Below are positions 5,205 to 43,067 of a stretch of DNA of 64,000 nt, piece after piece; the first letter of the stretch is position 1, and the number at the start of each line of letters is the position of its first letter. A program made the translations under genes and the position numbers. Source of the stretch: an uncultured Pseudomonadota bacterium (GTDB taxonomy: Bacteria > Babelota > Babeliae > Babelales > RVW-14). The DNA lies in the NCBI GenBank assembly GCA_964493325.1, contig CAZBMD010000001.1:133022-197021 (forward strand), given 5' to 3'. Under the pieces are notes generated by a model. It was not told the origin of the DNA. It did not search any database and was given only the letters and a program-made list of their open reading frames with translations.

Positions 5205-7658
5205 TTACACTGTTTTTCGGCTCCGTAACTTCATTTTTTCTTTTTGAATCTTAAAACTCTTTTTCTCCTTTTGATGTTCACTTTTGATATCCTTAACTTT
5301 TTTGATAGTTTCAGAAGCCGAAAAATAAGGGTCTTCTTGGATGTTCACAGATTTTGGACGATCAATCCCGGATGTAAAATTATCTATAGGCCTAAAAATG
5401 CCCTGACGCGAATCTTCAAGGCAGTGCTTGATCGATTGTGTTGATGGCTTGAAAAACCAGCGCTCTATTGGATCTTTACTTTGCGCATAGGTATCGTTGC
5501 GCATTACCTGGTATTTTGCGTAATCAAGTTTGAGCTGCGTGTATTCATCTGGTGCGCAAGCAAATTGTGGCTTGATGATGCTGGGTCGGATGAAGACGTA
5601 CAAATTAGCATCAGTTTTTGATTTACTCTTGCTTCTGAATAAATTACCTATGATCGGAATGTCTCCTAAGATAGGCGTTTTATAGACTGTTTCTGATTGG
5701 TTATTTTTAGTAAGACCACCAAGAACAATAACCTCACCGGTAGCCATAGAGACTTTTGTTTTTAAGGTGCGAGTGATTTTTTCTGGTTTCTCAGTTTCAC
5801 TTTCTGCTTTAAATTCATCAATGGTGACCTCTAGTTTAAGGTCCACAAGCCCTTCGATATTTATTTGAGGTGTAATATCTATTTTAGTTGATGCTTTTAC
5901 TTCTTGTCTTTGTACGCGTGATGGCTCGCCCTTGTTCGAAACAAAGTCTCCAGGTACCCGTCGAGTTTGGCCAACATCAATAGTTGTTGTCTGGTAATTA
6001 TTGATTACTACAAATGGCTGTGAGACAACGTGAAAGTTTTTTATTTTATAAACCGCTCTTATTATACTCCAAATATTTTCATTAGCAGGGTCTCCGCCTG
6101 GGAGCGCGCTTCGACCAATGGTCATGAACGATGGTGAGTTGATTCCTGTAAAATTTGATTGAGCAAGGTCTATATAGCGTTTTGCTACAGTCTTAGTTGT
6201 ATCACTGCTTGCTGGTGCAATTTCTCCAGAACTTAAATTTTTGAATTCGATTTCATTTATCCCCATGCCTGGATTGCGCCCCATGATATTAAAAGTTTGA
6301 GCGCCAAGTTCATTGAGTTGATCAATGCCAACATCTATGATCATGACCTCGACAGCAACCTGTGGTTGTGGTTTATCAAGTTTATCAATAAATTTTTCAA
6401 GACGGGCCCAATCATCTCGATTGCAAGCAATGATAAGGCGGTTGCCTCCGCCCCGACCTGAGCTTTCATCTTTAGGTGTTTCGGCTGCAATAGTTACATC
6501 CTCAAAAAATTTATAATCACCAATAACGGTGCTTTTGTCAGATGTTTGGCCCGGTGGGGCTTTAACTAAATTGTCCAAAATAGGCTTGAGCGCTTCGGCT
6601 TTGGCGTAACGAATTTCTTTGATGTGTAATCTTGAGTCTGCATCGCCAATTGGTACATCAATGTATTTTCCAATAAATTCAACAAGTTTATTAATATTTT
6701 TTTCAGTACCAAGCAAGATAAGCATATTTTGTATTGGTTCTGGAATAATGCGCGTATTGGAAGAAAAGTAACTTGCTTCTCTTTGACTGGTAAGAGATGT
6801 AAAACGGATGGTACGCTCGTCTTTATTGGCGCTAATCATTTCTTCAAACATTTTCCCAACGGTTTCAGCATTGGTATGTTTAAGTTTAATAATTTTGATA
6901 GACTCACTCAGTCCTCCGACATCAAGTGCTTTGACAATTTTCATGGCCGCTTTGATATTAAGGCTTTGATCTTTAAGAAAGCACATATTAAGATCGCGAT
7001 TAATCATTACGCCTTTTTCATCAGGCAACATGGTGCGTAAAATTCCTTGAGCAGTTTCCGCTTTTATATTTTTGAAAAAATAAGCATAGCGGATTACAAT
7101 GTCGCTTTGCGGGAGATCTTCAGGCTCTGTTTTAACTCCATTAATTCCAACCGATGAGTATATCGGAAGAACTTCCATACTATTATCTTTGGTAGGAATT
7201 ACGCGATATACACCATTAACAAGCACAATGCTAAATCCGTTTGATTCCATGAGTGTCAATAGAACATTCCAAGCGCGGTCAAGCGTTAAAGGTGTTCTTG
7301 TAGAAATAGAAACTTTGGCTGCTTCTAGGTCTTTGTTAGGTAGAACGTTGATGGATTTTTGTTCTGCAAGGTAATTCAAAATAGTTGAGAGAGAGACATT
7401 TTCAAAATTTAGGAAAATATTAGCTTCTTGCCTGTCATCATTAATGTCGTTTGAGTCTTTGATTGCTTGTAAGGTGCCGACAGTGGGCAGCGGAGGAAGT
7501 GTATTTGTTGGTTGTTGAACCGAAACAGGTGGTGTGTAAAATTGCTGATTTTGATTCTGTTGCCAAGATTGTTGAGCTAGAGTCGAGCAAATAAGAGCTG
7601 TAAGAGCAACAACACATGCAAGAAGTCGTGTTTTGAAACCATGTAAAATTTTCTTCAT
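5205..7658 (-). CDS. gspD: Secretin, GspD-type (paralog 2, distal gene of the operon)
   Basis: Signal peptide. N0-like IFLNFENVSLSTILNYLAEQKSINVL. Secretin core VLGGL...TPILGDIPIIGNLFRSKSKSKTDANLYVFIRPSIIKP. 4-nt overlap with the upstream gene. Confidence 0.88.
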   Translation of the reverse strand: MKKILHGFKTRLLACVVALTALICSTLAQQSWQQNQNQQFYTPPVSVQQPTNTLPPLPTVGTLQAIKDSNDINDDRQEANIFLNFENVSLSTILNYLAEQKSINVLPNKDLEAAKVSISTRTPLTLDRAWNVLLTLMESNGFSIVLVNGVYRVIPTKDNSMEVLPIYSSVGINGVKTEPEDLPQSDIVIRYAYFFKNIKAETAQGILRTMLPDEKGVMINRDLNMCFLKDQSLNIKAAMKIVKALDVGGLSESIKIIKLKHTNAETVGKMFEEMISANKDERTIRFTSLTSQREASYFSSNTRIIPEPIQNMLILLGTEKNINKLVEFIGKYIDVPIGDADSRLHIKEIRYAKAEALKPILDNLVKAPPGQTSDKSTVIGDYKFFEDVTIAAETPKDESSGRGGGNRLIIACNRDDWARLEKFIDKLDKPQPQVAVEVMIIDVGIDQLNELGAQTFNIMGRNPGMGINEIEFKNLSSGEIAPASSDTTKTVAKRYIDLAQSNFTGINSPSFMTIGRSALPGGDPANENIWSIIRAVYKIKNFHVVSQPFVVINNYQTTTIDVGQTRRVPGDFVSNKGEPSRVQRQEVKASTKIDITPQINIEGLVDLKLEVTIDEFKAESETEKPEKITRTLKTKVSMATGEVIVLGGLTKNNQSETVYKTPILGDIPIIGNLFRSKSKSKTDANLYVFIRPSIIKPQFACAPDEYTQLKLDYAKYQVMRNDTYAQSKDPIERWFFKPSTQSIKHCLEDSRQGIFRPIDNFTSGIDRPKSVNIQEDPYFSASETIKKVKDIKSEHQKEKKSFKIQKEKMKLRSRKTV

Positions 7659-8194
7659 ATTTTGTACCTGATTGTTGCAAATTTTAGATCAAAAGAAATG
7701 CGATTAGAAGGCTCATTCCGAACAGTGACCTCTTTGACGTAAATGATCTCTTTTTTATTGAGAGCATCAAGAACGCGAACCAGTTTTTCTGTATTTTGTC
7801 CTTTGAATGTTGCTTTTAGAATAATTTCGGAAATTTTGTCATTAATTTCAACGATAGAGTCGCTCCATCCAAGCTCAGGGGTAATCATCTGTTCTTTGCA
7901 AAATTGCTCAAAATAGATCTTAATATTAAAATCTTTTTCTTTATCAAAAACTTCCAGAAGCCGTTTTTGTTCTTGTTGAAGTACAGCTTCTTGTGCAATA
8001 ATTTCTGCTGACTTTGCACTCAGAGTGCCAATTCTCTTAATTTGATCAACTAGTTCTGCGCTTGAGGAATAGGTGTAGTAAGTGATACCAAGCGCGAGTA
8101 TGCTAACACCCGCAAGGAGAGCAACAAGGTATCTTTGAAACAAAGCTTGATTTAAATTTTGAATAAAGGCGGTTGTTTTGTTCAAAAGTTCCAT
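7655..8194 (-). CDS. GspM/PilO-like bitopic inner-membrane assembly protein
   Basis: 179 aa with a single N-terminal TM (YLVALLAGVSILALGITYYTY), then a coiled-coil and an alpha/beta region. It lies between the GspL-like gene and a secretin. The assignment rests on architecture and context only. Confidence 0.45.
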   Translation of the reverse strand: MELLNKTTAFIQNLNQALFQRYLVALLAGVSILALGITYYTYSSSAELVDQIKRIGTLSAKSAEIIAQEAVLQQEQKRLLEVFDKEKDFNIKIYFEQFCKEQMITPELGWSDSIVEINDKISEIILKATFKGQNTEKLVRVLDALNKKEIIYVKEVTVRNEPSNRISFDLKFATIRYKI

Positions 8195-8197
8195 GGT

Positions 8198-9889
8198 CTA
8201 TTGTTCTTTGTCTTTAGGTTTTAACTTTGTATTAAAACGAATGCTTCGTTCTTCTGCAATAGATTCATCCCACTGGTTTGGCGGCTCTCCGGCAAATGTG
8301 AGTAGTGGAGATATATCAAATCTGGTTTTGAACTCTGTAAATGATTCCCACAATGGCTTGCCTGGTGGTGGTTTAAAGATTCCTTCAATCTCAATGATAG
8401 GAACGCCATGTTCTTTTGTGACTATCGAGACCAATGTGACGTTTACATCAACTTTTTTCTTATCAATAATTTTTGTAAGCTCATCAAGAATTTCATTAGG
8501 CAATAATCGTTCTTTGATAAAAGGTGCCCACAATTCAGTTTTTTCTTGAATGGCTTTTCCAGCTTCTTTGACTAAATTTTGAAGCGTTATTTTTTTTGGC
8601 ATTTTATTAGGAGGAATAATTTTTTTCAGTGGAATCATTTCTTTACTCTCTGTTTTTTCAGCTATTGCTGATAGATGAGCTACTTCAAGATATCCTCTGA
8701 CACTTAAAATTCCTAACCCAAAAATAATTAGCAGTAATGCACAGACAATCTGTTTATTCATGAGTGCATCATGGGTTCGAGCAAATTCTTTGCGTCGTAG
8801 GTTAAAATCATCAAGAATTGGTGATGGAAGAGTGGCGCCAAGTGCCAGCGAAAAAGGACTCCACAGTGCCGGTGGATTTTTGATTGCATTTTTGACTCCT
8901 TTTTCTTGTAAGATTTTTTTGCAATCAAAAGGTTCGCAGGGGATTTGAAGAGCGTTACTTGCAACTTCAGCCATGTGTTTTATTTCTAACCCCTTGCCGA
9001 CAAGAAGAATTTTTTGCACGCCCTGATAATCATTAAGTTTCATGCTAAATGAGTTGAGCGTAAATTGAATATCGTTAAAAAGGCTCATTATATGTCTATT
9101 TGCTGCGATATCAAAGCTTTCGGTTCCATTAAAATTAAGACCAGATGAAAATAGGCGAGCATAGACGTTGCTTATTGGCTCATTAATCTCTTCGCTGATA
9201 TGTTTTGCAAGCGTTGTAATGCCTCGTTGAATATTGCGTGTAAGACGCAACTCTCCGCTGTATAAGAAGGCGATACGCGTTGCGTTGAGCGAGAGATCAA
9301 TAAACGCACACCCGCTGGAAATATTTTTATATTCAGAGATGTTTTGATATAATCCGTACAAAGCAAAAAAATCAACAGAAATACAATTAGGGTCGATGCC
9401 AGCGTCATTGTATAGCGTTAAAACATCCTGAAGATCGCTTTTTCTTATAGCCGCAACAAGCACGTGCGACGTTTGTTGTTCGGTATTTTCTTTGGTTACA
9501 ATAAAATCAATTAAGGCATCATCAATTGCAAATGGCAGCATACTTTCAACTTCATAATCAAGTACCATGCGAATTTTTTCTTGATCAATAAAGGGTATCT
9601 GTAAGCTTTTAAAAATAATAAGCGATGATGGAATACTGATGCATACTTGGTCAAATCGTGGCATCTGAGCTATGCATTTTCTTAAGGCTGCCGTTGTTTT
9701 TTGAGCGATGGTTTCACCTGTTTCAGTTTCAATTGCATATGATGCAAGTGATTCAATTATAGTTCCTCCACGCTTTGCATAGATTAAAGCAGCTTTTATC
9801 TCGTCATCTTGAATGCTCAAACCAAGAATGCGTTGGGCAAGAATACGTTTGTGACGAAATTTTTCAGGTAAAAAAAGCGCAGCAATCAT
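8198..9889 (-). CDS. GspL-like protein (PilM-type actin-like cytoplasmic domain + TM + periplasmic PilN-like domain)
   Basis: The N-terminal ~380 aa follow the PilM/GspL pattern (LGLSIQDDEIKAAL..., VLVAAIRKSDLQDVLTLYNDAGIDPNCISVDFFALYGLY). TM segment IVCALLLIIFGLGILSV. The C-terminal ~160 aa would be periplasmic. Confidence 0.6.
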   Translation of the reverse strand: MIAALFLPEKFRHKRILAQRILGLSIQDDEIKAALIYAKRGGTIIESLASYAIETETGETIAQKTTAALRKCIAQMPRFDQVCISIPSSLIIFKSLQIPFIDQEKIRMVLDYEVESMLPFAIDDALIDFIVTKENTEQQTSHVLVAAIRKSDLQDVLTLYNDAGIDPNCISVDFFALYGLYQNISEYKNISSGCAFIDLSLNATRIAFLYSGELRLTRNIQRGITTLAKHISEEINEPISNVYARLFSSGLNFNGTESFDIAANRHIMSLFNDIQFTLNSFSMKLNDYQGVQKILLVGKGLEIKHMAEVASNALQIPCEPFDCKKILQEKGVKNAIKNPPALWSPFSLALGATLPSPILDDFNLRRKEFARTHDALMNKQIVCALLLIIFGLGILSVRGYLEVAHLSAIAEKTESKEMIPLKKIIPPNKMPKKITLQNLVKEAGKAIQEKTELWAPFIKERLLPNEILDELTKIIDKKKVDVNVTLVSIVTKEHGVPIIEIEGIFKPPPGKPLWESFTEFKTRFDISPLLTFAGEPPNQWDESIAEERSIRFNTKLKPKDKEQ

Positions 9890-12651
9890 ACTGAAACCTT
9901 TCTACCAGCAGTTGATTCTGAGTTATGTGCAGATCTATCTGCTGAGGTCCGTAAAGCTAAGAAATCTTTAAACTGGTTTCGTTGGTTTACAAGATTGTCT
10001 TCTTGCGCTTGATTTTGTGGGGTTATCATATCTTTAAAAAGCTCGCGAGGAGAACTCGTAGGTGATCTATCTATTGGTTTGTTATCTGCGTTGTTGTCTG
10101 TAAGATGTTGATCTGAGAGTAATTGTTTCAGTCGATCTCTTTTTTCTTGAAGAGAATAGTCAAGAGCTTGCTCTTCTGTTAATGCTCCTGTTTGTTGATT
10201 TGGTACACTTTCTTTTGTTGGAATTTGAATAGTAAGTGGCTCGATAAATTGTTGCTCTGTTGCGATGGCTGGTGTCTGCGTTGAGGTATTAGTTTTTTTG
10301 GAGAGAGTTCTATTGCTACCATTGCCTTGCAATAGATTGTCTGATGTTTTCAAAGCCATAAATGGCTGCTCTTGATCTCGTCTTTCATTCTGCTCTTCAA
10401 TGATTTCTTGTCGAATTGTTTGAGATCGATAATACGGATCATTACGAATATCAACGGTTGTTGGTTGATAGCGAGCGTTAGCAAAATCTATTACCTTGTG
10501 AGAGTAGTTTTCCTTGGCAGGATTAAAGAACCAATTGTGAATAGGGTCGTGTGTACGCTTTGTTTCGATAGCTTCTTCAATTCTGTTAGTGGCATCATGC
10601 ATCTTCATTTTTGTGTACATTTGAATACCAGGGATTTGACGTGGCTTAATGATCGTTGGTGCCATAAAAATAAAAATATATTCTTTTTTGACTGTTCGTT
10701 CTTGACTCTTAAATAGCCACCCAAGGATTGGAATGTCGCCAAGTAATGGGGTTTTACTTTTACTTTCATCGACTTTTGTTTTTACAAAACCGCCAAGAAC
10801 CAGTACTTGCCCATCAGCAACCGTGACATTTGTTTTGAGATTTTTTGTATTTCTGATGTTACCTGCAGTATCAACAAAATCTTCGATGGTAACGTTCATA
10901 TCCATACGGATAAGCCCCTCAAGATTTATTTGAGGCTGAACTTGAATACTTGTTTTTACAGGAATTTCAGTAAAACTTTGACGAGCATCGCCCTCTTCTG
11001 CCACCACGCGCTTGGTCTCGCCAACTTCTATTGATGCGCTTGTCTTGTTTGCAACAGTGACAAATGGTTGAGAAAGGAGTGTGGCATTCACTTGGGATTT
11101 GAGCATGCGAAAAACACCCCAAATATTGTCTTTTTTTCCAAAGCTTAAAACAGTTGCTCCTTGGGCAGCTACAAGCTGGTTGAGTAAGCTGCCAAGTAAG
11201 CTGACTGGAGTTGTGTCTGTTGAAGAAACTGGTTCAAGACTAGGATTGCCTGTTAAAGCTGCTGATTGAAAGTCTATGTTGTGTCCAATTTGTCCATGTT
11301 TTTTGTTTCGTAGCATACCTCCAAGGCTTTTGGCATCGTCGACCGAAACGGAGACAATGAGTGTTTCGATGGCGACTTGAGGCTGTGGTTTATCAAGATC
11401 AATAATTGTTTGTTTGAGTAACTTCCAATCTTGTTTATCGGTGGATGAGACTATGAGCCTATTTCCATCTTTATCGACTTGAAACTTCATTGATTTGAAA
11501 TATTTGACGCCTCCTCGCACTGCCCCATATTTGCCTGCTTGTGCTCCAATTGTTGATTCTGGGGCTTGCGTAACTTCTTTTAGGATATCCATGATTTGTT
11601 GAGCATCGGTGTGTTTGAGCTCAAAAATATGAAGAGGAGATTCGGTTCCTTGCAGTTCTGTATCAATGTGTTTAGTAATGAAATCGATAATTTTTTCAAT
11701 TGAAGCATTATTGCCAAGCAGAACAAGAGAGTTTGTTCGTTCTTCAGCGATGATGCGTGTACCGGGTGAAAAATACTCAGAGGTGCCTTCGGATGTTTTG
11801 CCCAGTAGTCGAGCAAGTGGATTCCCTTCTGGCTTCTTGACTAAAAGATCAAGAATTCCTTTGACGTCGGCGGCGTTTGCTCGCTTAAGACGGACAACAG
11901 CAACCGTTTCTTGCATACCCATCTGGTCAAGTTCAAGGAGAAGTCGAGCAGCGGCTTTGATGTTGAGAGACTTGTCGGTGATGATAAACGCATTGGCATC
12001 TTTTTGTTCAACGACGTTATTTGGAGAACTGAGCATACTCAGGAGCAGATCTTTAACGTCAGCTACTTGAATGTTGTTTAAAAAAAGAACGTAACGAATT
12101 TCAAGTTCACTGTTTGGTAGCGTCTCAGGGCCAACATTGATGTAGGCTGGCAGTGCTTGTGTGAGTTTTTTATCACGCGGAATAATTTTATAAATGTCTT
12201 CATTTTCAATAAGCGAAAAACCGGCCATCTCAAGTACACTCAAGAAAATATTCCATGCGCCATCAGCGGTCAATGGGTCTCGAATAGTGAGCGATATCTT
12301 TGCCCCTTCTAAAGTTTTATCGGGGATGATGTTAAGCTTTCTTATCTCTGCCATGTAGTTTATAAAGTTTATCAGGTCAGTGTTTTCAAAATTAAAGAAA
12401 ATGTCTTTTTTTGCCTCACCACGATTTTTTGCATCACCTTGCAAGGTTGATTGATTTTGTTTATTGATGGATTGTGACGCATCAATAATAGGGAGTGGCG
12501 GCAAAGAATTTTGCTGGTCAATAGTATTAGTTAATTCTTGATTTAAATCTGTAAAAGCTGTCCCAGAGGCAATACACATGATTGATAAAAAAAAGATTAT
12601 GCTGCGCGGGTGTTTTTTGGTATTCATACCTTTTTCATCCTTATTAATCAT
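9886..12651 (-). CDS. gspD: Secretin, GspD-type (paralog 1) with ~250-aa C-terminal extension
   Basis: Signal peptide. N0-like IFFNFENTDLINFINYMAEIRKLNII. Secretin core VLVLGGF...TPLLGDIPILGWLFKSQERTVKKEYIFIFMAPTIIKP. The tail is rich in Q/N/S/T. Confidence 0.88.
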   Translation of the reverse strand: MINKDEKGMNTKKHPRSIIFFLSIMCIASGTAFTDLNQELTNTIDQQNSLPPLPIIDASQSINKQNQSTLQGDAKNRGEAKKDIFFNFENTDLINFINYMAEIRKLNIIPDKTLEGAKISLTIRDPLTADGAWNIFLSVLEMAGFSLIENEDIYKIIPRDKKLTQALPAYINVGPETLPNSELEIRYVLFLNNIQVADVKDLLLSMLSSPNNVVEQKDANAFIITDKSLNIKAAARLLLELDQMGMQETVAVVRLKRANAADVKGILDLLVKKPEGNPLARLLGKTSEGTSEYFSPGTRIIAEERTNSLVLLGNNASIEKIIDFITKHIDTELQGTESPLHIFELKHTDAQQIMDILKEVTQAPESTIGAQAGKYGAVRGGVKYFKSMKFQVDKDGNRLIVSSTDKQDWKLLKQTIIDLDKPQPQVAIETLIVSVSVDDAKSLGGMLRNKKHGQIGHNIDFQSAALTGNPSLEPVSSTDTTPVSLLGSLLNQLVAAQGATVLSFGKKDNIWGVFRMLKSQVNATLLSQPFVTVANKTSASIEVGETKRVVAEEGDARQSFTEIPVKTSIQVQPQINLEGLIRMDMNVTIEDFVDTAGNIRNTKNLKTNVTVADGQVLVLGGFVKTKVDESKSKTPLLGDIPILGWLFKSQERTVKKEYIFIFMAPTIIKPRQIPGIQMYTKMKMHDATNRIEEAIETKRTHDPIHNWFFNPAKENYSHKVIDFANARYQPTTVDIRNDPYYRSQTIRQEIIEEQNERRDQEQPFMALKTSDNLLQGNGSNRTLSKKTNTSTQTPAIATEQQFIEPLTIQIPTKESVPNQQTGALTEEQALDYSLQEKRDRLKQLLSDQHLTDNNADNKPIDRSPTSSPRELFKDMITPQNQAQEDNLVNQRNQFKDFLALRTSADRSAHNSESTAGRKVSV

Positions 12652-12654
12652 TTA

Positions 12655-13791
12655 TTATGCCCGTTGACGTTGAGTACGTGTTCGCAAGTTATCCATGAGT
12701 TTTTTGCGAACATCCATCATTGTTTTTTGGCGTACAGGGTTAGGATGTCGTTTCTTGAATTTACGTAAATTGGTTTCTCGTTCTTGTAGCCTACTCATGC
12801 TTTGATCTGATATAACAGTTGGGGTTGATCCTGCAGCAAAATCAAACTGGCTTGCCGAGTCAAAGCGCGTAAATCGATATGTGTGGAACAAGTCGCTTTG
12901 AGCTCGTCGAATTTGCATATTTACAGAATCGCCCTGTCGAACACTTGATAGTGTATCATAAATAGCAAGGCGATTTTTTGGTTCCGCTGTTGCCAGGTTG
13001 TTTACCGCGACAATGATATCATTTTGCTTGAGCCCTAAGAGAGAGCCGATTTCTTGCTCGCCAATTTTTCCAACACGAATTCCAACAGGCGCTCCTTCGT
13101 AAAAAGCCATACCAACCAAGGGCACGCGCTCAATAAAGTTGCCAAGTGAATCAATTTCTTTGGCAAAAGCCTGGTGGTCAACATCAAACGTAAATGAATC
13201 AAGTTGCTTAACTGTTTTTTTGAGTGCTTCAGGAGCTGCAAGATCTAACTTATTGTCTTCTTTTCGCAAAAAAAATGTTTCTTGCTGGCCATTGGCGCGT
13301 AAAAAAATAACTCGGTTACGTGCAATCTTTATAACTTGAGCGTCTTTTATCTTTTCTCCAACGTGATAAAGACCTTCTTTGTTGGTTTCATCAGCGATCA
13401 TTGCAACGTTACGCATTTCATCTGATGATACAATAATTCCTTTAAGGGCGATGCTCAGTGGAGCTACAAATTCCTGTCTTTTTTGCTCAGGAGGTTGGGG
13501 GATAATAGGAGCTCGAAGCTCAGGAACAGGAGTTGTAAAATTCTTTTGTGATGGCTGCGGAATAGGGGGCGGCATTGGAGCAACAAATGTTCCAAAAATA
13601 TCATTTTGATAAATACTTTCAAGGTTGACGATCGAAGCTGCGTCCTTTTTTTTTAAAGGTTCGCTGACAATTGGTTTTTTGATCCGTAGTCGCGGAGCTT
13701 CTTGATGGAGTAGCTGAGTCAAAGACAAAACCACAATAAAAATACTCAGGAGTGAGCTATTTACGATCCATAACTGTTGCTTCATAGTCAA
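12655..13791 (-). CDS. gspC: Type II secretion protein C-like (TM + HR-like domain + PDZ)
   Basis: N-terminal TM (LWIVNSSLLSIFIVVLSL), a Pro-rich linker, HR-like YHVGEKIKDAQVIKIARNRVIFLRANGQQETFFL, and PDZ-like GIRVGKIGEQEIGSLLGLKQNDIIVAVNN. It sits immediately upstream of a secretin. Confidence 0.7.
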   Translation of the reverse strand: MTMKQQLWIVNSSLLSIFIVVLSLTQLLHQEAPRLRIKKPIVSEPLKKKDAASIVNLESIYQNDIFGTFVAPMPPPIPQPSQKNFTTPVPELRAPIIPQPPEQKRQEFVAPLSIALKGIIVSSDEMRNVAMIADETNKEGLYHVGEKIKDAQVIKIARNRVIFLRANGQQETFFLRKEDNKLDLAAPEALKKTVKQLDSFTFDVDHQAFAKEIDSLGNFIERVPLVGMAFYEGAPVGIRVGKIGEQEIGSLLGLKQNDIIVAVNNLATAEPKNRLAIYDTLSSVRQGDSVNMQIRRAQSDLFHTYRFTRFDSASQFDFAAGSTPTVISDQSMSRLQERETNLRKFKKRHPNPVRQKTMMDVRKKLMDNLRTRTQRQRA

Positions 13792-13871
13792 CTTTCCTTG
13801 TTTACAGACTTCGAAGATACTTTTAACGTATCTCTACTGTCAAGTAAACACTACAGGTATTCTTATTTTTT

Positions 13872-14858
13872 TTACGGAGCAGGAATCACACGCAATATTT
13901 TCTGAATAATGGCGTCTGGTGATACATTTTCCGCTTCAGCTTCGTACGTTAAAATAATGCGGTGTCGTAGGACATCGGCTGCAACAGCTTTGACGTCGTC
14001 AGGTATAACAAAGTGACGCTTTTTCAAAAAAGCATAACCTTTTGCTGCCTGCGTTAAGCGGAGACTCGCGCGAGGAGATGCTCCGTATTGAATAAAGTGC
14101 TCAATGTCTTCAAGTCGATGTTCAGTTGGATTTCGTGAGGCGAAAACAATATTCAATATGTAGTCAGTAACTTTGTCATCGATATATATTTCTTTGACCA
14201 GTTGTTGGTCTGCAAGAATGTCCTGAATTTCAATAATTTTATTAATCGTTTGAGGCTTTAAAGCTTTTGCAATAATATCTCGTTCTTCAGCCATCTTAGG
14301 ATACGTGATCAATATTTTAAACATAAACCGATCGACTTGTGCTTCTGGTAGACGATAGGTTCCTTCTTGATCTATAGGATTTTGCGTTGCAAGAACTAAA
14401 AAAGGCTGATCAAGAGGGAATGTCGTATCCCCAATGGTGACTTGATGTTCTTGCATAGCTTCAAGTAGGGCAGATTGTACTTTTGCTGGTGCGCGATTTA
14501 TTTCGTCAGCAAGAATAAGGTTGCTAAAAATAGGACCTTTTTTGGTTTGAAACTCTTGTGTCTTTGGATTGTAAATTAAAGTTCCAATAAGATCTGCAGG
14601 TAATAAATCAGGGGTAAACTGAATCCTTCTAAAATGAAGTCCAATTGCATCAGATATAGATTTAATCAAAGTTGTTTTTGCAAGACCTGGTACGCCTTCC
14701 AAGAGGACGTGTCCATTGCATAATAAGCTGATGAGTATGCGATCGATAATTTGCTCTTGCCCCACAATAACTTTGCGGATCTCGTTTTTGAGATCTTGCC
14801 ATTTTATTGATTTTTCTTTGACAAGTTCTGCGGTGTTGTGAGAAGAAAATTGTTCCAT
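13872..14858 (-). CDS. MoxR-family AAA+ ATPase
   Basis: Walker A LLEGVPGLAKT, Walker B/sensor ILADEINRAPAKVQSALLEAMQE, and the typical ~320-aa MoxR layout. Confidence 0.9.
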   Translation of the reverse strand: MEQFSSHNTAELVKEKSIKWQDLKNEIRKVIVGQEQIIDRILISLLCNGHVLLEGVPGLAKTTLIKSISDAIGLHFRRIQFTPDLLPADLIGTLIYNPKTQEFQTKKGPIFSNLILADEINRAPAKVQSALLEAMQEHQVTIGDTTFPLDQPFLVLATQNPIDQEGTYRLPEAQVDRFMFKILITYPKMAEERDIIAKALKPQTINKIIEIQDILADQQLVKEIYIDDKVTDYILNIVFASRNPTEHRLEDIEHFIQYGASPRASLRLTQAAKGYAFLKKRHFVIPDDVKAVAADVLRHRIILTYEAEAENVSPDAIIQKILRVIPAP

Positions 14859-15109: not shown

Positions 15110-16411
15110 ATGAACAAGCAATTATTAAGTATACTATTTATTTGTTTATTGCAAGTGTCATGTCTCAAATATAGCATCTATGCTGATATATGCTCATTGC
15201 AAGATTTTTCATTTAAAAAATTGTCGAATGAACTTTTGACGGTGAAAATTGATGAAAAAATTCCTGATTATATTAAAGATGAAAACGGAGAGCGGGAGGT
15301 TCCTCTGAGTCTAAAGGCACAATTATATACCTATCTTCCAATATTGGATGTCAAAACTTCTGTAAAAACTTTATATGGACATACTGGTTCAGTTAATTCG
15401 GTAATTCAGCTTAATATTGGGGTTTTTGCAGGATGCCTTGCTTCTGCATCTTATGATCGTACAGTCAGAATATGGAACTCTTTTACAGGTAAATGTTTAC
15501 GTATTCTTAAACACTCATCTGCCGTTAGATCAGTAATGCAGCTTCAACATGGAGATTATGCAGGATATCTTGCCTCTGTTTCTTGGGAACATATAGTTAC
15601 AATTTGGAATCCTTTGTCAGGTAAATGTGTCTGTATACTAAAAGGGCATACTGGCTTCATTCACTCAGTAATCCAGCTGAGTCATGGCGATTTAGCAGAA
15701 TGCCTTATATCTGCATCTTGGGACAATTCGGTTAGGGTTTGGAATCCTTATTCAGGTGAATGTATTCGTGCATTGTCTTATGATGAAGATCGTGAACTTG
15801 ATTTTTGGCCTTCTGTTACGGGTGAGCGTATACGCACGTTAAAGCAGCTTAGACCGGTTAATGCTGCTATTAAGTTAAAGTATGGCGAATATGCAGGACA
15901 TTTTTTGTTTGTTCCGAATGATTGTATTTTGAGAATTTTAGATCCGATTACTGGCAACTATGTACGTTCTTTGGAAAAATATATGTGCGCAGGTAGTGGA
16001 AAAGTGCAATTGAGGAATGGCAATATTGCGGCCGGATTTGTTGATTGTTCAATTAAAGTTAGAGATATATCAGGTGGTCGTGATGAATGTATAAGATCTC
16101 TTAGTGGGCACAGCGATTTTATTACATCATTGATCCAATTAGAAGATGGACGATTAGTATCGACTTCTTGGGGGCATGTCATCAAAATATGGGATATGTA
16201 TCCGCAAGATGTATGCGATCTTTCTTTGGAGCAGTATATCCTTGTTGCTCAGTTGCAGTTTCACAAGAGGAATGGAGATAATATTCAATTGCATGCAGAC
16301 TGGTATGAAGTTTTTAATACGCTACCAGAATATTTTCAGAATCAATACCTTGAGTATTTAGATAATCATTCTTTCAATTTTGCACACAGAAGGTGGTGCG
16401 CTATTTTATAA
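15110..16411 (+). CDS. Signal-peptide WD40 repeat (beta-propeller) protein
   Basis: The N-terminus MNKQLLSILFICLLQVSCLKYSIYA looks like a signal peptide. Repeats of GH[TS]..[VI].S[VL][IM]QL..G..A..L.SAS.D..V.[IV]WN recur about every 44 aa. Confidence 0.8.
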   Translation: MNKQLLSILFICLLQVSCLKYSIYADICSLQDFSFKKLSNELLTVKIDEKIPDYIKDENGEREVPLSLKAQLYTYLPILDVKTSVKTLYGHTGSVNSVIQLNIGVFAGCLASASYDRTVRIWNSFTGKCLRILKHSSAVRSVMQLQHGDYAGYLASVSWEHIVTIWNPLSGKCVCILKGHTGFIHSVIQLSHGDLAECLISASWDNSVRVWNPYSGECIRALSYDEDRELDFWPSVTGERIRTLKQLRPVNAAIKLKYGEYAGHFLFVPNDCILRILDPITGNYVRSLEKYMCAGSGKVQLRNGNIAAGFVDCSIKVRDISGGRDECIRSLSGHSDFITSLIQLEDGRLVSTSWGHVIKIWDMYPQDVCDLSLEQYILVAQLQFHKRNGDNIQLHADWYEVFNTLPEYFQNQYLEYLDNHSFNFAHRRWCAIL

Positions 16412-17207
16412 AACGCTCCTTTTTTTTGAGTCGAATCTTTGGTTTTTTGTGCCTATGAGATTGCTTTTGGTCTAAGTTTTTAGGTGCAAGTATTAGTTCA
16501 TTGATGGCCAATAATGCTTGTTCGCTATCTACAAAATTCTGATTTTTGCTTCCTACATCAATACGTAATTGATTGAATTCTATTTGTAGTTTGTAAGATT
16601 CAAGCTGGTATTGGTTTTTAATGACAGCAATAAGAGCGTGCACTTCGATGGATTTTTTGATGCACGATAGAAACGAGTCAAAAATAAATGTGCGATATTT
16701 TTTACTGTTGGATGACGAGTTATATCTCCAATTTTTAACAGTTTTACACGAAATTTTTGTATCAGACGATGGATGATTTTGTATTTTTGGCTGTTGGTGA
16801 TTATTTTTATTAATTATTTGATACATGATTTTTGCGGCGAGAATAAAGTCGTTTTCAGAGAGACCGTTAATTGAGTGAGTATAGATGATAAGATTGATAG
16901 ATTTGTCAGCTATTTCGAAGTTTGCGTGATGCCCCTCTGTTTCGCAGATAGATGCTATCTTGTCAATAAAATTATACAGCTGCTCGTGAGTGGTGAATGT
17001 GAATTTTTTGAAAATTTTATTGTCATTATCAGCGCGCCATTGGCCTGGTAGTCTTTTGATCAAAGAGTGGATCTGCTTTGATGAAAGTTTTTTGATATTG
17101 TTATTGTGGCACGGTTCACAGTATTGATTATATAAAGAGTTTTTATTCTGCGCAGCCACCGTAAAAGGTATGAACAGCAAAAGCGAGAGACTTATTGAGA
17201 TAAACAT
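16401..17207 (-). CDS. Signal-peptide protein with one canonical and one degenerate pterin-4a-carbinolamine dehydratase (PCD/DCoH) domain
   Basis: Domain 1 is CEPC...LPGQWRADNDNKIFKKFTFTTHEQLYNFIDKIASICETEGHHANFEI...IYTHSINGLSENDFILAAKI. It matches the bacterial PhhB pattern (CEAC...W...F.F..F..A..F...V....E..HHP....TH...GL..ND...A). Domain 2 repeats the layout, but HHP is replaced by NQYQ. Confidence 0.65.
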   Translation of the reverse strand: MFISISLSLLLFIPFTVAAQNKNSLYNQYCEPCHNNNIKKLSSKQIHSLIKRLPGQWRADNDNKIFKKFTFTTHEQLYNFIDKIASICETEGHHANFEIADKSINLIIYTHSINGLSENDFILAAKIMYQIINKNNHQQPKIQNHPSSDTKISCKTVKNWRYNSSSNSKKYRTFIFDSFLSCIKKSIEVHALIAVIKNQYQLESYKLQIEFNQLRIDVGSKNQNFVDSEQALLAINELILAPKNLDQKQSHRHKKPKIRLKKKERFIK

Positions 17208-17380
17208 AATAGTAGCCCTATTTTTTTTAACAGAGATGATTTAACGAAGAGATTATTGCAGAATTATTTTTTTTAAATCAATGAAAAAATTAAAAGAGCT
17301 AAGATGGTAGGCTTGTAGCAAGCTGGGAGATTTTTTTGAGTCTGAAGGGATCGTTAAATCTCTTCAGACTCAGAGTGTGG

Positions 17381-18631
17381 TTAGTGACTTATGCATTCGA
17401 CAAGATCGCGGTTGAGATAATTGTCAACAGCTTCTCTTTCCATCATTTTTTTAAAGAGATGAATAAGTAAAAAGCTCAGTGTGTCTTGCGCATCGATCAT
17501 ATCTTGTGGTGCAATAGCGGCTGAACTGAGGTGATCATTTGGCTTCATATCTGATTTATGTTTTTCGATAAAATCAGCAGACTCATCAGAAAGTGGTTTG
17601 GCTGGTAACTTCCAATATCCGCCAAGATAATTGATAACTGGTGGTTGATTTTGATAGTGATGAATGGTGAAGACAAGCCGCATTGTTCCATCAAATTCCT
17701 GCATATTCCCATTTCCATCTACGTCAACACTAATTGGTTTTGACTCTACAAATTCTTCAACTAAAAATTTATCGTTAGTATCAAATGCCCAGTAGCCGTA
17801 CGTATGATCGATGCCAAAATCGGCGAGCTCTTGAGGGCGAAGTAGGATTTGCTGAAGCATGTTTTCTAAATTGTCTCTTTCAACAATAATGACGCCTCGA
17901 CCTCGGCAAGAATTGATTGGTTTGATAACGAAAAACGATCCACCAATATTGCTGGTAATTTCATTTGCCAGAGCAGGGGTATATTCCTTGGAGCATGTTA
18001 TACATTTTGGTCTAAAACAAGCAGAGAAGTCATCGTCGAACAGCATATTAGTATTGTATTTACTGTTTACATACTTATTGGATATATCTCCAACAAAGCG
18101 TACTTGCGGAAATATTTTTTTAAATTTCTCTATAGATCGATATGGCCTTCCATATCGGACCATAGCAATGGCTTTATAATCTCTGCAGGCTTGAGTTTTT
18201 ATGACACCATCTTCGTTTCGTAGCAATTCTTTAATTTGATTTTTTAAATCAGAAATACCATTTGTTGCGGTACCGCCCATAGAAAAAAAATAGTCCGGCG
18301 CCATATCTTCCCTGTGTTCGACATCGTTCATACGGATGCCCCACATTGGTACGTTAAAGGTTCGAAGATAGTCCCAAAAGTTTTTCCATAACATCTGAGG
18401 GCCATAGAGTTTTTCGTGTCCTTTAAACTTTGAGCGAGGTCCTTCCCCAAATTCAAGAACTTTTATTTCTCCTCGTTCAAGGAATTTCATATCAGCAATA
18501 CAAAAAGCTATATGATCAGGAAGCGGTGTCGCGCCTTGATTTTGTGTAGCTGTGCTATTTGTTTCTGTAATTAACTGAGAAAATATTGATGTGCCTAGAA
18601 ATAACAAAAATAAATAATGCCGATTATTCAT
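17381..18631 (-). CDS. Signal-peptide ATP-grasp-like protein (RimK/tubulin-tyrosine-ligase-like fold, tentative)
   Basis: FFVIKPINSCRGRGVIIV resembles the ATP-grasp phosphate loop. FLVEEFVESKPI...EFDGTMRLVFTI resembles the hinge/central sheet. The N-terminus MNNRHYLFLLFLGTSIFSQ looks like a signal peptide. Confidence 0.4.
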   Translation of the reverse strand: MNNRHYLFLLFLGTSIFSQLITETNSTATQNQGATPLPDHIAFCIADMKFLERGEIKVLEFGEGPRSKFKGHEKLYGPQMLWKNFWDYLRTFNVPMWGIRMNDVEHREDMAPDYFFSMGGTATNGISDLKNQIKELLRNEDGVIKTQACRDYKAIAMVRYGRPYRSIEKFKKIFPQVRFVGDISNKYVNSKYNTNMLFDDDFSACFRPKCITCSKEYTPALANEITSNIGGSFFVIKPINSCRGRGVIIVERDNLENMLQQILLRPQELADFGIDHTYGYWAFDTNDKFLVEEFVESKPISVDVDGNGNMQEFDGTMRLVFTIHHYQNQPPVINYLGGYWKLPAKPLSDESADFIEKHKSDMKPNDHLSSAAIAPQDMIDAQDTLSFLLIHLFKKMMEREAVDNYLNRDLVECISH

Positions 18632-18802: not shown

Positions 18803-20110
18803 TTAGGATTTTGCGACTAAATTGAGCTTGAATATGCGATCTTTAAGGTCTGGAAGAGATATATTAAGTTGATTACTCATTTGGGAGAGGTCGAAGTGGT
18901 GTTTTTTTAGTAAATGGAGAAAAAACTCTTTTTCAAAACGCTCAGTTGCTTCTTGCAATGAGTCAAATTTTGTAAATAGTTGCTCGTCAACTAAGCATTG
19001 CTCTGATTCGGGAAGCGTTGATTCAACCATAGTTGGGGTAATAATAGTTTCTTCGTAGGTTGTAAGTGCTACGAGTCGTTCAATAATACTTTTGAGCTGA
19101 GTAACGTTTCCAGTCCAAGAGTAGTTTCGTAAAAGGCGCAATCCTCGAGAGCTCATGACTGCTGATTTGCTTTGTTTGTTGTTTGCGTTATCTATGAAAT
19201 ATTCGATAAGAAGAGGGATATCGTAGCGCCTCTTGTTCAGAGGAGCTATTTCAAGAGGGACAATGTTGAGTTTGTAAAAAAGCGTTTTGTTAAAAGATCC
19301 GCTTTGAACAAGTGAAAAAAGCTGCACTGATGTCGAGGCGATTATTTTTATATTGTCAGCGTGCGAACTTATAAAAGATAAAACATATTTCTGATTTTCT
19401 AGTGAAAGTTCATGAATGTTTTTAAAAAATACACAACCTTCTAGGGCTTCTTGAAGCTTATCCTGAATATTGTTGCTGGTGCAATCAATGGTAAGTATGG
19501 GTTTGTTGTTGTATTTGCTTATTGAATGAATATAGCGAGCAAAAAGAGTTTTGCCTGTTCCATGTTGCCCATAGATTAAAATAGGATAGTTAAGTGTTGC
19601 AACATTTCTGATTTGTCTGATCAATTCAAGAAAAAGCGTACTTGCTCCAACAATTCCAAAATCTCTTAGATTATATTCGCTGTTATTAAGAGGGATAAGT
19701 GAAGAGTCAGAGTCTTTTTTTAGAAAAGATAACTTACGTAAGATTTCTTCAAAATTGAGAGGTTTCTCAATAAAATCGCGCGCTCCTCGCTTGACTGCAT
19801 CTACGGCGATAGGAACGGTTCCAAATCCTGAAATGATAATGACTTGTTGTGCTGGATATTCTTGTTTTATACGCTCCAGGATATCAAGCCCATTGATGTT
19901 GGGCATAAAAACATCAAGGAGTACAACGTCGGGAACAAGAGACCCAAGTTTTTCTAGTGTTTTGCTGCCGTCTTGCAGTGTTTCGACGCAAAATCCTTCA
20001 TCTTCTAGAGAATCTTGTAGTGTTTGTAAGATAGCTGGTTCATCATCAACAATAAGAACGAGTGGTTGGTTTGTGGTAGAAAAAGCCGAGTTGCGGGACA
20101 TGGTGGTCAT
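18803..20110 (-). CDS. NtrC-family response regulator (REC + degenerate AAA+ + Fis-type HTH)
   Basis: REC: LIVDDEP, LLDVFMPNINGLD, FIEKPL. AAA+: GQHGTGKT Walker A and GNVTQLKSIIERL (GNVREL-like), but no GAFTGA, and FFKNIHEL stands where hhhhDE belongs. C-terminal HTH. ATGA overlap with mlaF. Confidence 0.75.
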   Translation of the reverse strand: MTTMSRNSAFSTTNQPLVLIVDDEPAILQTLQDSLEDEGFCVETLQDGSKTLEKLGSLVPDVVLLDVFMPNINGLDILERIKQEYPAQQVIIISGFGTVPIAVDAVKRGARDFIEKPLNFEEILRKLSFLKKDSDSSLIPLNNSEYNLRDFGIVGASTLFLELIRQIRNVATLNYPILIYGQHGTGKTLFARYIHSISKYNNKPILTIDCTSNNIQDKLQEALEGCVFFKNIHELSLENQKYVLSFISSHADNIKIIASTSVQLFSLVQSGSFNKTLFYKLNIVPLEIAPLNKRRYDIPLLIEYFIDNANNKQSKSAVMSSRGLRLLRNYSWTGNVTQLKSIIERLVALTTYEETIITPTMVESTLPESEQCLVDEQLFTKFDSLQEATERFEKEFFLHLLKKHHFDLSQMSNQLNISLPDLKDRIFKLNLVAKS

Positions 20111-33700: not shown

Positions 33701-34886
33701 CAACTCTTAAGTTTGGTGCAAGTTCTCGACTTTGTAGCTCAACGTAAACGTATGGCTTAAACAACTCGAGAGCCATAATTTTTGGCAGCCCGCATTGATA
33801 TAATTTAAGTTCTGGATCGACTACAATTACAGATCGTCCTGAATAATCCACTCGTTTACCAAGCAAATTCTGGCGGAATCGACCTTGTTTACCACGAAGC
33901 ATTTCGCTCAATGATTTTAATGGACGTCTGTTAGAACCACGAACGGGCTGTCCTCGTCGACCATTATCGATAAGAGCATCAACAGCTTCTTGAAGCATGC
34001 GTTTTTCATTTTTAATCATAACGTCTGGCGATTCAAGTTCAATCAGACGACGAAGACGAATGTTTCGGTTTAAGACTCGACGATATAAGTCATTAAGGTC
34101 GGAGCTTGCAAAGCGGCCACCTTCTAAAGGAACAAGAGGGCGAAGATCAGGTGGAATAACAGGAAGAACCTCAATAATAATCCACTCTGGTCGAATATTT
34201 GCTTGCAATAAACCTGAAATAACTTTAAATCGTTTTGCTAATCGGTGCTTGATTGCAACCGAAGTTGTTTGTGCATAGTCTTCTTCAACTTTTCGAACTT
34301 CAAAAGCAAGATCGATTGTCGATAGAAGAAGTTTTATAGCTTCAGCGCCCATCCCTGCTTTGAACGTGATATCTTCGTCATTTGAACGAATATAATCATC
34401 ATACTCTTGGCTATTAATGAGGGTTTTTTGTTGATATGGCGAGTTTCCTTGATTGATAACAATATAACTATCAAAGTAAATTACTCGTTCCAAATCACGA
34501 ACTGTCATTCCTAAAATTAAACTTAGATAACTAGGAATCCCTTTAAGGTACCAAATATGACAAACGGGGGAAACCAAGTTAATGTGTCCCATACGTTCTC
34601 TTCGAACGCGGGACTGAATAACTTCAACGCCACATTTTTCACACGTTACACCGCGATGTTTCATGCGTTTATATTTACCGCAATTACATTCCCAGTCTTT
34701 TACAGGACCAAAAATACGAGCGCAAAATAGGCCGTCTCTTTCAGGCTTGAGTGTTCGATAATTAATCGTCTCAATTTTCTTCACTTCTCCGTATGATAGA
34801 GAGCGAATTTTATCAGGAGAAGCAACGCTAATTTTAATCGCATTGAATTGTGTTGTATTAATATACTCGCGAAATCGCTCAAGCAT
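30771..34886 (-). CDS. rpoC: DNA-directed RNA polymerase subunit beta'
   Basis: Zn motif [23 protein letters not shown] and catalytic [12 protein letters not shown] 34886 lies 4 nt after the rpoB stop. The ORF extends to 34931. Confidence 0.97.
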
Positions 34887-34890
34887 TCTA

Positions 34891-39222
<4,332 letters not shown>

Positions 39223-42356: not shown

Positions 42357-42433
42357 TGGCAGGCCAGGAGGGATTCGAACCCCCAACCCACGGATTTGGA
42401 GTCCGTTGCTCTACCAGTTCGAGCTACTGGCCC
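42357..42433 (-). tRNA. tRNA-Trp (anticodon CCA)
   Basis: Manual fold: D arm GCTC-GAACTGGTA-GAGC, anticodon stem ACGGA/TCCGT with loop CTCCAAA, T loop TTCGAAT, CCA encoded. Confidence 0.88.
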
Positions 42434-42442
42434 TTATCGTAA

Positions 42443-42601
42443 TTATTTTGTTTCTTTATGCGTCGCGTGTTTGCGGCATTTGGCACAGTACTTATTGATA
42501 GCAAGTTTACCGAAAGCTCTTTTTTTCGAAACACGTTTGCTATAATTTCTCATGCCGCATCCTTCACACTCAAGATGCATAATTGTGCGATTCTTTGCCA
42601 T
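42443..42601 (-). CDS. rpmG: 50S ribosomal protein L33 (not in the ORF track, 52 aa)
   Basis: My translation of the minus strand is MAKNRTIMHLECEGCGMRNYSKRVSKKRAFGKLAINKYCAKCRKHATHKETK*. It has the L33 CxxC...CxxC layout and the typical position upstream of secE. Confidence 0.85.
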   Translation of the reverse strand: MAKNRTIMHLECEGCGMRNYSKRVSKKRAFGKLAINKYCAKCRKHATHKETK

Positions 42602-42633
42602 AATTAAACCTTTGTATCGTTAAACAATAAAAC

Positions 42634-42709
42634 TGGAGCCCGCGACCGGACTCGAACCGGTGACCTCTCCCTTACCAAGGAAGTGCTCTGCCAACTGAGC
42701 TACGTGGGC
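42634..42709 (-). tRNA. tRNA-Thr (anticodon GGT)
   Basis: Manual fold: D arm GCTC-AGTTGGCA-GAGC, anticodon loop TTGGTAA, T arm ACCGG-TTCGAGT-CCGGT, CCA encoded. One A-C mismatch in the acceptor stem. Confidence 0.85.
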
Positions 42710-42787
42710 GCTGTTTTATTTTTCTATCCGCACTTAAATGCTTTCAGTCCCAATCACTCGCGTGTCTAAATACGGCGATCTCTTTAC

Positions 42788-42863: not shown

Positions 42864-42871
42864 AGACCATT

Positions 42872-42947: not shown

Positions 42948-43067
42948 AGTCAATATCAAGTATTTTATGTACGCAGGAAATGACACGTCTTGAGAGTATA
43001 TAAAACTTTTAGACAAGTGCCAATTTGTGCGCATATTTTTTTATAAATAATGCTTTTTTGCTTTAAA

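Follow-up and report, generated by a model that had tools for sequence, protein, structure and literature searches.

Candidatus Dependentiae are widespread obligate intracellular parasites of protists. For this phylum, also referred to as TM6, type II secretion system (T2SS) components, and possibly type IV pilus (T4P) components, have been described as core genes by Yeoh et al. 2016 (PMC4776705), who reported "two copies of ... gspD ... in all genomes", found pilQ to be absent and suggested that one gspD copy replaces PilQ, which they called "an open question". The same two-gspD/no-pilQ feature of TM6/Dependentiae is also cited to Deeg et al. 2019 (PMC6561590) and to Pagnier et al. 2015 (PMC4378268). 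The T2SS is the only secretion system of Babela according to Pagnier et al. 2015 (PMC4378268), and a T2SS-type apparatus is likewise the only dedicated secretion system reported for Dependentiae (PMC4378268). These accounts concern the same phylum and the same genes as those analysed here; they give copy numbers only, and we found in them neither the operon bracketing nor the duplication age nor the dual GspD architecture, nor did the literature searched hold a description of the operon gene order. Here, we report that a 64,000-nucleotide stretch of Dependentiae DNA (contig CAZBMD010000001.1 of assembly GCA_964493325.1, positions 133,022 to 197,021, forward strand; the window) carries a five-gene operon with two gspD-type secretin genes, which is a conserved envelope module of the type IV filament machinery (T2SS/T4P family), i.e., a hybrid with a duplicated GspD. 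The doubled secretin itself is already known, and as the two gspD copies have been public since 2015-16, what we add is modest: the operon logic, the age of the duplication, the intactness of both copies and a testable positional hypothesis (gspC-gspD plus pilM/N-O-"Q"). An earlier interpretation of this DNA from its letters (the sequence-only reading) had implied that the secretin pair was novel, which does not stand given that two gspD copies without pilQ had been reported for TM6 (PMC4776705).

Five consecutive minus-strand open reading frames (ORFs), running from 13791 to 5205 in the six-frame ORF list, make up the operon: a GspC-like protein (12655..13791; 378 amino acids in the longest ORF), the upstream secretin, here D1 (9886..12651; 921 amino acids), a PilM-type/GspL-like fusion, here the L-like protein (8198..9889; 563 amino acids), a putative divergent GspM-like protein, here the M-like protein (7655..8194; 179 amino acids), and the downstream secretin, here D2 (5205..7658; 817 amino acids). 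The stop of D1 overlaps the start of the L-like gene in an ATGA at 9886-9889, and the stop of the M-like gene overlaps the start of D2 in the same way at 7655-7658, both of which can be read in the sequence; the remaining two junctions (GspC-D1 and L-like/M-like) are gaps of 3 nt, which places gspC 3 nt upstream of D1. The gene coordinates, the two overlaps and the bracketing of the L-like and M-like genes by the secretins are all as the sequence-only reading had given them, and the two N0 peptides quoted there are both present, the first coming from the downstream secretin and the second from the upstream one. GspC may start at an internal ATG at 13785 in place of the longest ORF, and D1 may start at an internal ATG at its Met9, about 12627. 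At the end of the operon, 6 nt separate it from a LOG-family gene in convergent orientation; on the upstream side, the GspC gene is preceded at 80 nt by a MoxR AAA+ gene.

Judged by their profile and structure matches, D1 and D2 are both divergent members of the GspD class, not GspD equivalogs. TIGR02517 (GspD) is the best NCBIfam match of each (297 bits for D1, 281 bits for D2, profile positions 1-593 of 600), both scores lying under the curated equivalog cutoff of 351.35 bits. The PilQ profile TIGR02515 matches only in the C-terminal part (145 and 149 bits, cutoff 284 bits), the SctC profile gives 98 and 93 bits for D1 and D2, and MshL and HofQ also fall below the PilQ scores; an AMIN domain was matched in neither protein with Pfam or NCBIfam. 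The best PDB sequence match of D1 is Vibrio cholerae GspD (5wq8, E = 1.5e-45), which extends from N0 through the barrel, and that of D2 is enterotoxigenic Escherichia coli GspD (5zdh, E = 3e-33). Only GspD entries span N0 to barrel among the PDB matches, those to PilQ, pIV and InvG being confined to the barrel at 1e-15 or weaker. An AlphaFold2 (AF2) model of D2, built on a 110-sequence alignment (mean predicted local distance difference test score (pLDDT) 71, about 90 in N0), shows four N domains, a complete barrel at 433-695 and C-terminal helices at 703-762, and its top seven Foldseek matches are all T2SS proteins (GspD/PulD/EpsD, 1e-36 to 1e-28), PilQ scoring 1e-21. Profiles, PDB matches and Foldseek thus agree that the operon holds two genuine GspD-class paralogs, not a GspD beside a PilQ, as the sequence-only reading had maintained; it had also allowed that one paralog might prove to belong to another secretin class, and neither does. 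PilQ, type III secretion system (T3SS) secretin and pIV were considered as identities for either paralog and ruled out by NCBIfam, the PDB matches and Foldseek, and a lipoprotein nature was ruled out as well, there being no conserved lipobox cysteine in D1 or D2.

The two secretins are collinear over 768 residues (33% identity, E = 1e-136), and their alignment includes an "LPPLP" motif ahead of N0 and a post-barrel extension of the form "DPI..WFF.P ... DPYY/F". Both begin with an SPI-type signal peptide and a variable proline-rich linker (P-rich in D1, P/Q-rich in D2), followed by N0-N1-N2-N3 and the barrel; D1 then has an S-domain-like conserved extension (about 681-760) and a long low-complexity tail, and D2 has S-domain-like helices and a short K-rich tail. 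Pfam finds N0, three Secretin_N stretches and Secretin in D1, and N0, Secretin_N and Secretin in D2, the Secretin domain scoring 119 bits in D1 and 124 bits in D2. Identity between D1 and D2 is highest in N0 (0.42-0.46) and lowest (0.22-0.24) at D1 441-560, which aligns with E. coli GspD 363-482; nowhere does D2 evolve faster than in the equivalent stretch, and within its barrel the AF2 model is least confident at the corresponding segment (~459-512). Between 5wq8 and the G453A gate mutant 5wq9, the difference lies at a glycine whose aligned counterpart here is the glycine of "VG(E/Q)T(K/R)RV", and this equivalent of the V. cholerae G453 gate-hinge glycine is invariant in D2, in D1 and in 108 D1 homologs of the 110-sequence alignment, as are many barrel glycines and prolines in both D1 and D2. 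With the full architecture and the gate hinge kept, both secretins look functional. The tail of D1 beyond the post-barrel extension (window 9886-10400) comprises ~160 amino acids of low complexity, rich in Q/N/E/S/T; the total length of D1 orthologs varies widely, from 777 to 1118 amino acids, while D2 ends in a short lysine-rich tail.

The operon is not peculiar to the present genome. All named D1 homologs come from Candidatus Babeliales, Dependentiae or TM6. Scanning one genome per species with the L-like protein gave 27 loci, all from Dependentiae-type metagenome-assembled genomes (MAGs), including the genomes UASB124 and UASB340 of Yeoh et al. (L014/L016 and L020 in our numbering of loci). 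The order C-D1-L-M-D2 is identical in every locus whose contig reaches far enough, in these 27 and in CP064957.1, a closed Dependentiae genome of 1.45 Mb that reads MoxR, T2SSC, secretin, PilM_2/T2SSL, a 155-amino-acid protein, secretin, convergent LOG and DeoC. Even L027 and L028, the most divergent loci, whose L-like proteins are 29-30% identical, keep it. Of 23 loci, 19 retain the ATGA overlap between D1 and the L-like gene; gaps elsewhere in the operon are mostly 1-30 nt. GspC orthologs are present in every related locus that reaches that position, and D1 and D2 are retained full-length with signal peptides across the phylum, neither gene being lost outright in any sampled lineage. From an order shared down to L027 and L028 it follows that the arrangement is, as far as these sequences go, a standard feature of the phylum. 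The synteny comparison proposed by the sequence-only reading thus came out in favour of conservation; that reading had also considered that the arrangement might already be described as standard for its clade, of which the first half holds (it is the clade standard), and for the second no description of the gene order was found in the literature searched. D2 is split into two ORFs in one MAG (L026:12278-14700), and D1 in another (L027:7729-10000). Copies of D1, the L-like gene, the M-like gene and D2 that are at least 90% identical to those of the window lie on one contig of 1,353,103 bp (JGI/IMG, Logan), which is probably the closed genome of the same or a sister species; the JGI names there are "general secretion pathway protein D" for both secretins, "Tfp pilus assembly PilM family ATPase" for the L-like protein and "hypothetical" for the M-like one. 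Viral contigs scanned for the operon gave nothing.

How old the pair is was assessed with a neighbour-joining tree of secretins (684 trimmed columns, 200 bootstraps, with E. coli GspD and HofQ as the sole outgroups). The Dependentiae secretins all group together (96.5% bootstrap); within them, the D1 copies form one clade, at 87% with the deep-branching L028 and 100% without it, and the core D2 copies form another at 100%. Branching orders within the two clades are congruent, and mean identities are 56% within D1, 47% within D2, 33% between D1 and D2 and 24% to E. coli GspD. From the two clades and their congruent branching we infer that the D1/D2 duplication predates the sampled radiation, i.e., that the pair is ancient and has been vertically inherited under constraint; a recent or lineage-specific duplication, the other possibility that the sequence-only reading had raised, is ruled out by the tree. 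Two points limit how far the tree reaches: the placement of the D2 copies of L027/L028 has a bootstrap of 27%, and with two outgroups only, a duplication in the stem lineage is not proven.

These comparisons also bear on the possibility that D2 (or D1) is a non-channel derivative, such a derivative being one of three options offered by the sequence-only reading; it might for instance act as a scaffold in the periplasm or in assembly, or be a duplicate in decay. D2 evolves faster than D1 by mean identity (47% vs 56%), has a single clear Pfam Secretin_N stretch and is split in one MAG as D1 is in another, all of which would agree with such a derivative; however, both genes are full-length with signal peptides across the phylum, the D2 model has N0-N3, a complete barrel and S-like helices, the Secretin domain of D2 scores no lower than that of D1 (124 vs 119 bits), and neither protein shows variation at the gate-hinge glycine or at many of the glycines and prolines of the barrel. 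As D2 keeps every domain as well as the gate hinge, we consider a non-channel role highly improbable. An artefact or a pseudogene was set aside on the grounds of the conserved loci and the invariant residues.

The partner proteins combine features of the two machineries. The GspC-like protein has an N-terminal transmembrane helix, an HR domain at 111-175 and PDZ-type matches covering residues 236-301. PF11356 (T2SSC) is matched on the HR part with 38.7 bits (cutoff 27), and NF041515 (GspC_delta, E = 1e-22) and TIGR01713 (E = 2e-15) are matched below their curated cutoffs (81 vs 150 bits); there are weak PDB matches to the GspC HR domains 2lnv and 7oio. It is, accordingly, bitopic, with an HR domain and a C-terminal PDZ-like domain, and its gene adjoins gspD, as expected of a GspC. 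The L-like protein consists of a PilM-type actin-like cytoplasmic domain, a transmembrane helix at ~381-401 and a periplasmic domain of ~160 amino acids. Its match to PF11104 (PilM_2) spans profile positions 1-303 of 340 and scores 77 bits, the cutoff being 27; it also matches PF05134 (T2SSL) with 46.7 bits (cutoff 25.5) over positions 16-138 of 231 only; TIGR01175 (pilM) reaches E = 2e-21 (76 bits, under its 133-bit cutoff) and TIGR01709 (gspL) E = 2e-5 (23.8 bits, under its 65-bit cutoff). Its PDB matches are to PilM only (Myxococcus, Thermus and Pseudomonas; 3jc8 at 2.9e-13, then 2ych and 5eox), no GspL/EpsL structure being matched at E <= 1. The periplasmic part is weakly assigned, with PilN matched in one of 24 orthologs and GspL_C in one of 24. 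Taken together, the protein appears to have a GspL-like architecture with a PilM-like sequence, in effect a PilM-PilN fusion; the "GspL-like" label of the sequence-only reading therefore holds for the architecture, while by sequence the protein is closer to the PilM of type IV pili.

The 179-amino-acid M-like protein has no Pfam or NCBIfam match of its own. Its family is small, numbering 219 representatives among 1.84 billion proteins, and in it T2SSM (PF04612) is the commonest match, with 18 of 121 members (best E = 1.3e-4, all weak) and 3 more for T2SSM_b. Alignment with hhalign against E. coli GspM and HofO was negative, as was a profile search of the PDB; a single-sequence AF2 model, unreliable at pLDDT 47.6, gives an N-terminal transmembrane helix, a coiled-coil helix and a C-terminal alpha/beta domain; and a homolog search with a concatenated alignment of the M-like protein and the L-like C-terminal part returned two proteins only. 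We name it GspM-like because T2SSM is by far the most recurrent Pfam family among its relatives, and as a divergent GspM-like protein it is weakly assigned.

Searched by tblastn with the E. coli K-12 set, the 64 kb window showed no homologs of GspE, GspF, GspG-K, GspO or HofB; none of its frames contains a prepilin cleavage motif, and its larger ORFs are by Pfam housekeeping genes, with no motor, platform or pilin genes among them; the absence of E, F and G-K near the operon, which the sequence-only reading had noted for the immediate neighbourhood, thus extends to the whole window. Likewise, in 28 related loci, tblastn with E. coli proteins found no E, F, G-K or O gene within ~10 kb of the operon. 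In none of the sampled genomes are the genes for motor, platform, pilins and peptidase linked to it. There was no pilotin-like gene among the flanking genes scanned, in the course of which no dedicated pilotin search was made. Two relatives, Babela and TM6SC1, are covered by the COG table of Pagnier et al. 2015 (PMC4378268), with counts, in that order, of PulD 3 and 2, PulE/PilB 2 and 2, PulF 2 and 2, PulG 3 and 0, PilV 2 and 0, PilE 1 and 1, PulO 1 and 1, PilM 1 and 1 and PilT 0 and 0. One of the two PulF/PilC-type genes is a lone gene in Babela and in two relatives (loci L032-L034 and Babela gene 448, PMC4378268 supplement), where it is always preceded by a small YggU/PF1765-like (COG1872) gene and lies far from any ATPase or pilin (E, G) gene; we conclude from this lone PulF that the filament genes are scattered. 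A search with the Babela PulF sequence returned orphan orthologs only, and the Babela gene annotated with a "PilB N-terminal domain" has no neighbouring ATPase gene. Two pilus clusters (L035, L037) were tried as a Dependentiae source of E, F and G and set aside, as they probably belong to other phyla.

How, then, could one set of partners serve two secretins? N0 is the domain that binds the HR domain of GspC in known T2SSs. In the model that we favour, to which we give a probability of roughly 45%, D1 and D2 would each form their own gated homo-oligomeric outer-membrane channel, and both channels would dock through their closely similar N0 domains onto a single platform of GspC (by its HR domain) and the L-like and M-like proteins. 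The two channels would serve two different motor/platform pairs, in line with the two PulE and two PulF of published Dependentiae genomes. D1, which sits beside gspC as in gsp operons, would export folded effectors delivered by Sec; D2, which comes after the pilM/N and O/M-like genes, would be the conduit of a non-retractile pilus-like fibre, the substitute for PilQ that Yeoh et al. proposed. That D2 holds the pilQ position is read from the gene order, namely gspC-gspD and then pilM/N, an O/M-like gene and a secretin. It is the likeness of the N0 domains next to the divergence at D1 441-560, this gene order, the published copy numbers (two E and two F genes, but one PilM and one peptidase) and the covariation of evolutionary rates that make us favour two pores on a shared platform; in the last of these, GspC and the L-like protein are tied about equally to D1 and D2, above the housekeeping background (r = 0.61-0.74, a weak result from 12 genomes). 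Among the three options of the sequence-only reading, two alternative channels on one platform is the one that fits best.

Several points weigh against this model and should be kept in view. The pairing of D1 with secretion and of D2 with a pilus is drawn from gene position only, and D2 is a GspD and not a PilQ both by sequence and by fold. The E and F copy numbers are those of Babela and TM6SC1 in the literature, not of the present genome; no pili were seen on Babela (PMC4776705). Of the supposed platform, the M-like protein as a whole and the periplasmic part of the L-like one are only weakly assigned. Finally, rate covariation is strongest of all pairs between D1 and D2 themselves (r = 0.89-0.95, 12-13 genomes), and this, together with their co-transcription, fits a heteromer equally well.

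Such a heteromer would be one hetero-oligomeric ring, mixed or alternating, in which D1 and D2 co-assemble to serve a single machine. Besides the covariation, the genes of D1 and D2 stand always in one tight operon across the phylum, the proteins are collinear down to the shared C-terminal extension and the pre-N0 motif, and there is one C, one L and one M partner only. On the other hand, the covariation may merely reflect the homology of the two secretins and is explicable by that alone, the secretin entries matched in the PDB are rings of 12-15 copies of a single sequence, and at 33% identity, with barrel, lip and gate the most diverged parts, a regular lateral beta-barrel interface between D1 and D2 is unlikely; the published counts of two E and two F also match two channels. 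A heteromeric secretin is not known to us, nor did a search of the literature bring one to light. A mixed ring is therefore, in our opinion, unlikely. A close variant, in which one GspC-L-M platform would bear two different secretin pores next to each other and alternate between secreting and assembling a fibre, seems to us similarly improbable.

Alternatively, D1 and D2 may be channels for one and the same T2SS, without any pilus, and might differ in the size of the pore, in the range of substrates or in life stage (the extracellular particle vs the intracellular replicative form). This would agree with the GspD class of both secretins, with the XphA/XqhA precedent described below, with a divergence that is greatest in the barrel, lip and gate region, with the very large signal-peptide repertoires (44% of the coding sequences in Chromulinavorax), and with no pili having been seen on Babela (PMC4776705) and no PilT having been listed (PMC4378268); a sigma-70-like match in the L-like gene, near chance level, could express D2 separately. 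But Babela is listed with PulE and PulF twice each and with several classes of pilin (PulG, PilV, PilE), which suggests two filament systems rather than one, the L-like protein is PilM-type, and D2 stands at the pilQ position in the gene order. We regard two alternative channels of one T2SS as possible yet doubtful, and keep two homo-oligomeric pores with different tasks on a shared platform as our preferred model.

With the T2SS-type apparatus as the sole secretion system reported for the phylum and with signal-peptide repertoires of such size, the operon is probably the exit gate for host-manipulation proteins. Among the type IV filament machines compared here, it is unusual to find full-length secretins co-transcribed as a pair, kept phylum-wide and sharing a single docking set. 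If the two secretins do share a platform, or form a mixed ring, this would change the understanding of the specificity and stoichiometry between secretin and platform; a heteromeric ring of D1 and D2 would, to our knowledge, be the first heteromeric secretin. Elsewhere in the window, three tandem paralogous ORFs (57493-61359, plus strand; 394, 411 and 465 amino acids) match PF00443 (ubiquitin C-terminal hydrolase) at 6e-9, 1.5e-4 and 1.1e-4, which makes them candidates for eukaryote-like deubiquitinases, of the kind expected among the effectors of intracellular parasites.

The surroundings of the operon are conserved too. The usual setting is TIM-SecG-MlaE-MlaF-response regulator-MoxR upstream and LOG-DeoC downstream. 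In the window, the MoxR-type AAA+ ATPase (13872..14858, minus strand; PF07726 AAA_3, E = 1.7e-65) is directly upstream of the operon and co-oriented with it. MoxR adjoins GspC in most related loci and is absent in three (L020, L022, L023), GspC there having the response regulator as its immediate neighbour. This regulator, NtrC/PilR-like and equipped with a sigma-54 interaction domain (18803-20110, minus strand), is, as MoxR is, a co-oriented conserved upstream neighbour across the loci (L001-L028). Between regulator and MoxR, the window has at 15110-18631 a WD40 protein, a 268-amino-acid pterin-4a-carbinolamine-dehydratase-like protein and a 416-amino-acid ORF without Pfam match; this looks like an insertion into the conserved block, regulator and MoxR being adjacent in most relatives.

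Promoter signals were sought by consensus scanning, in which the region gave 39 sigma-70-like matches vs 27.6 expected. A match in the 80-bp gap between MoxR and GspC (TTGACA-18-TATCTT, 10/12; 13814..13843, minus strand) is a possible sigma-70-like promoter of the operon, weak as evidence because such matches are near chance level in AT-rich DNA. The best match of the region (TTGATA-16-TATAAT, 11/12; 9087-9114, minus strand) is inside the L-like gene, ~0.9 kb upstream of the M-like/D2 pair, and could be an internal promoter, again near chance level. Neither the gap upstream of GspC nor the one upstream of MoxR holds a sigma-54 promoter consensus, and a terminator scan gave results no better than chance level. 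Farther away, the window has a tRNA cluster on the minus strand (42357-43152; Tyr, Gly, Thr, Thr, then Trp) upstream of ORFs that have the sizes, and by sizes only, of rpoB/rpoC (30771-39222). Many bacteria have tuf at the tRNA-Thr/tRNA-Trp position; here no tuf gene lies between these two tRNAs, as no ORF fits the gap.

Compared with the canonical T2SS operon (E. coli K-12 gspC-O, Klebsiella Pul, Vibrio Eps), the present one has in common a GspC with HR and PDZ domains directly before a GspD with N0-N3, barrel and S-like region, what appears to be a bitopic protein of L type whose cytoplasmic domain is actin-like, and a putative small bitopic M-like protein. It differs in having two secretins, both without a lipobox, in an L-like protein that is PilM-type by sequence, in protein matches that all lie under the NCBIfam equivalog cutoffs, and in that E, F, G-K and O are neither in the operon nor within 10 kb in 28 loci. 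A precedent for a second GspD-type secretin on one T2SS platform is XphA/XqhA of Pseudomonas aeruginosa, an alternative pair of GspC and GspD type operating together with the Xcp platform. XqhA is accompanied by a GspC homolog of its own and not linked to the xcp operon, whereas here a single GspC is co-transcribed with both secretins.

Against the type IVa pilus operon pilMNOPQ (Myxococcus, Pseudomonas, Thermus; E. coli hofMNOPQ), the likeness is in the succession of a PilM-type gene, a bitopic N/O-like part and a secretin, and in the cytoplasmic domain of the L-like protein, which matches the PilM structures 3jc8, 2ych and 5eox. Unlike in pilMNOPQ, PilM and the N-like part are fused here and followed by one O/M-like gene only, there is no PilP gene, the homologous HR domain being borne by GspC, and the place of pilQ is taken by a secretin of the GspD class that has four N domains and in which no AMIN was detected; PilT is absent in the published Dependentiae relatives (PMC4378268). 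The pilus-like cluster Amuc_1098-1102 of Akkermansia (NF045709, NF042912) likewise includes a PilM-like protein that is long and continues past the PilM domain, and residues 20-407 of the L-like protein match the Amuc_1101 family (E = 2.6e-17, 63 bits vs a 650-bit cutoff), while the secretin matches Amuc_1098 only over its C-terminal ~70 residues. The T4P machinery of Thermus thermophilus, which makes two pili (PMC13039148), and a cyanobacterial pilus-biogenesis component that affects the exoproteome (PMC8092324) are functional analogies for one machine with several outputs, in which a shared platform has more than one filament or export task; in the Dependentiae operon, the duplicated part is the outer-membrane channel itself.

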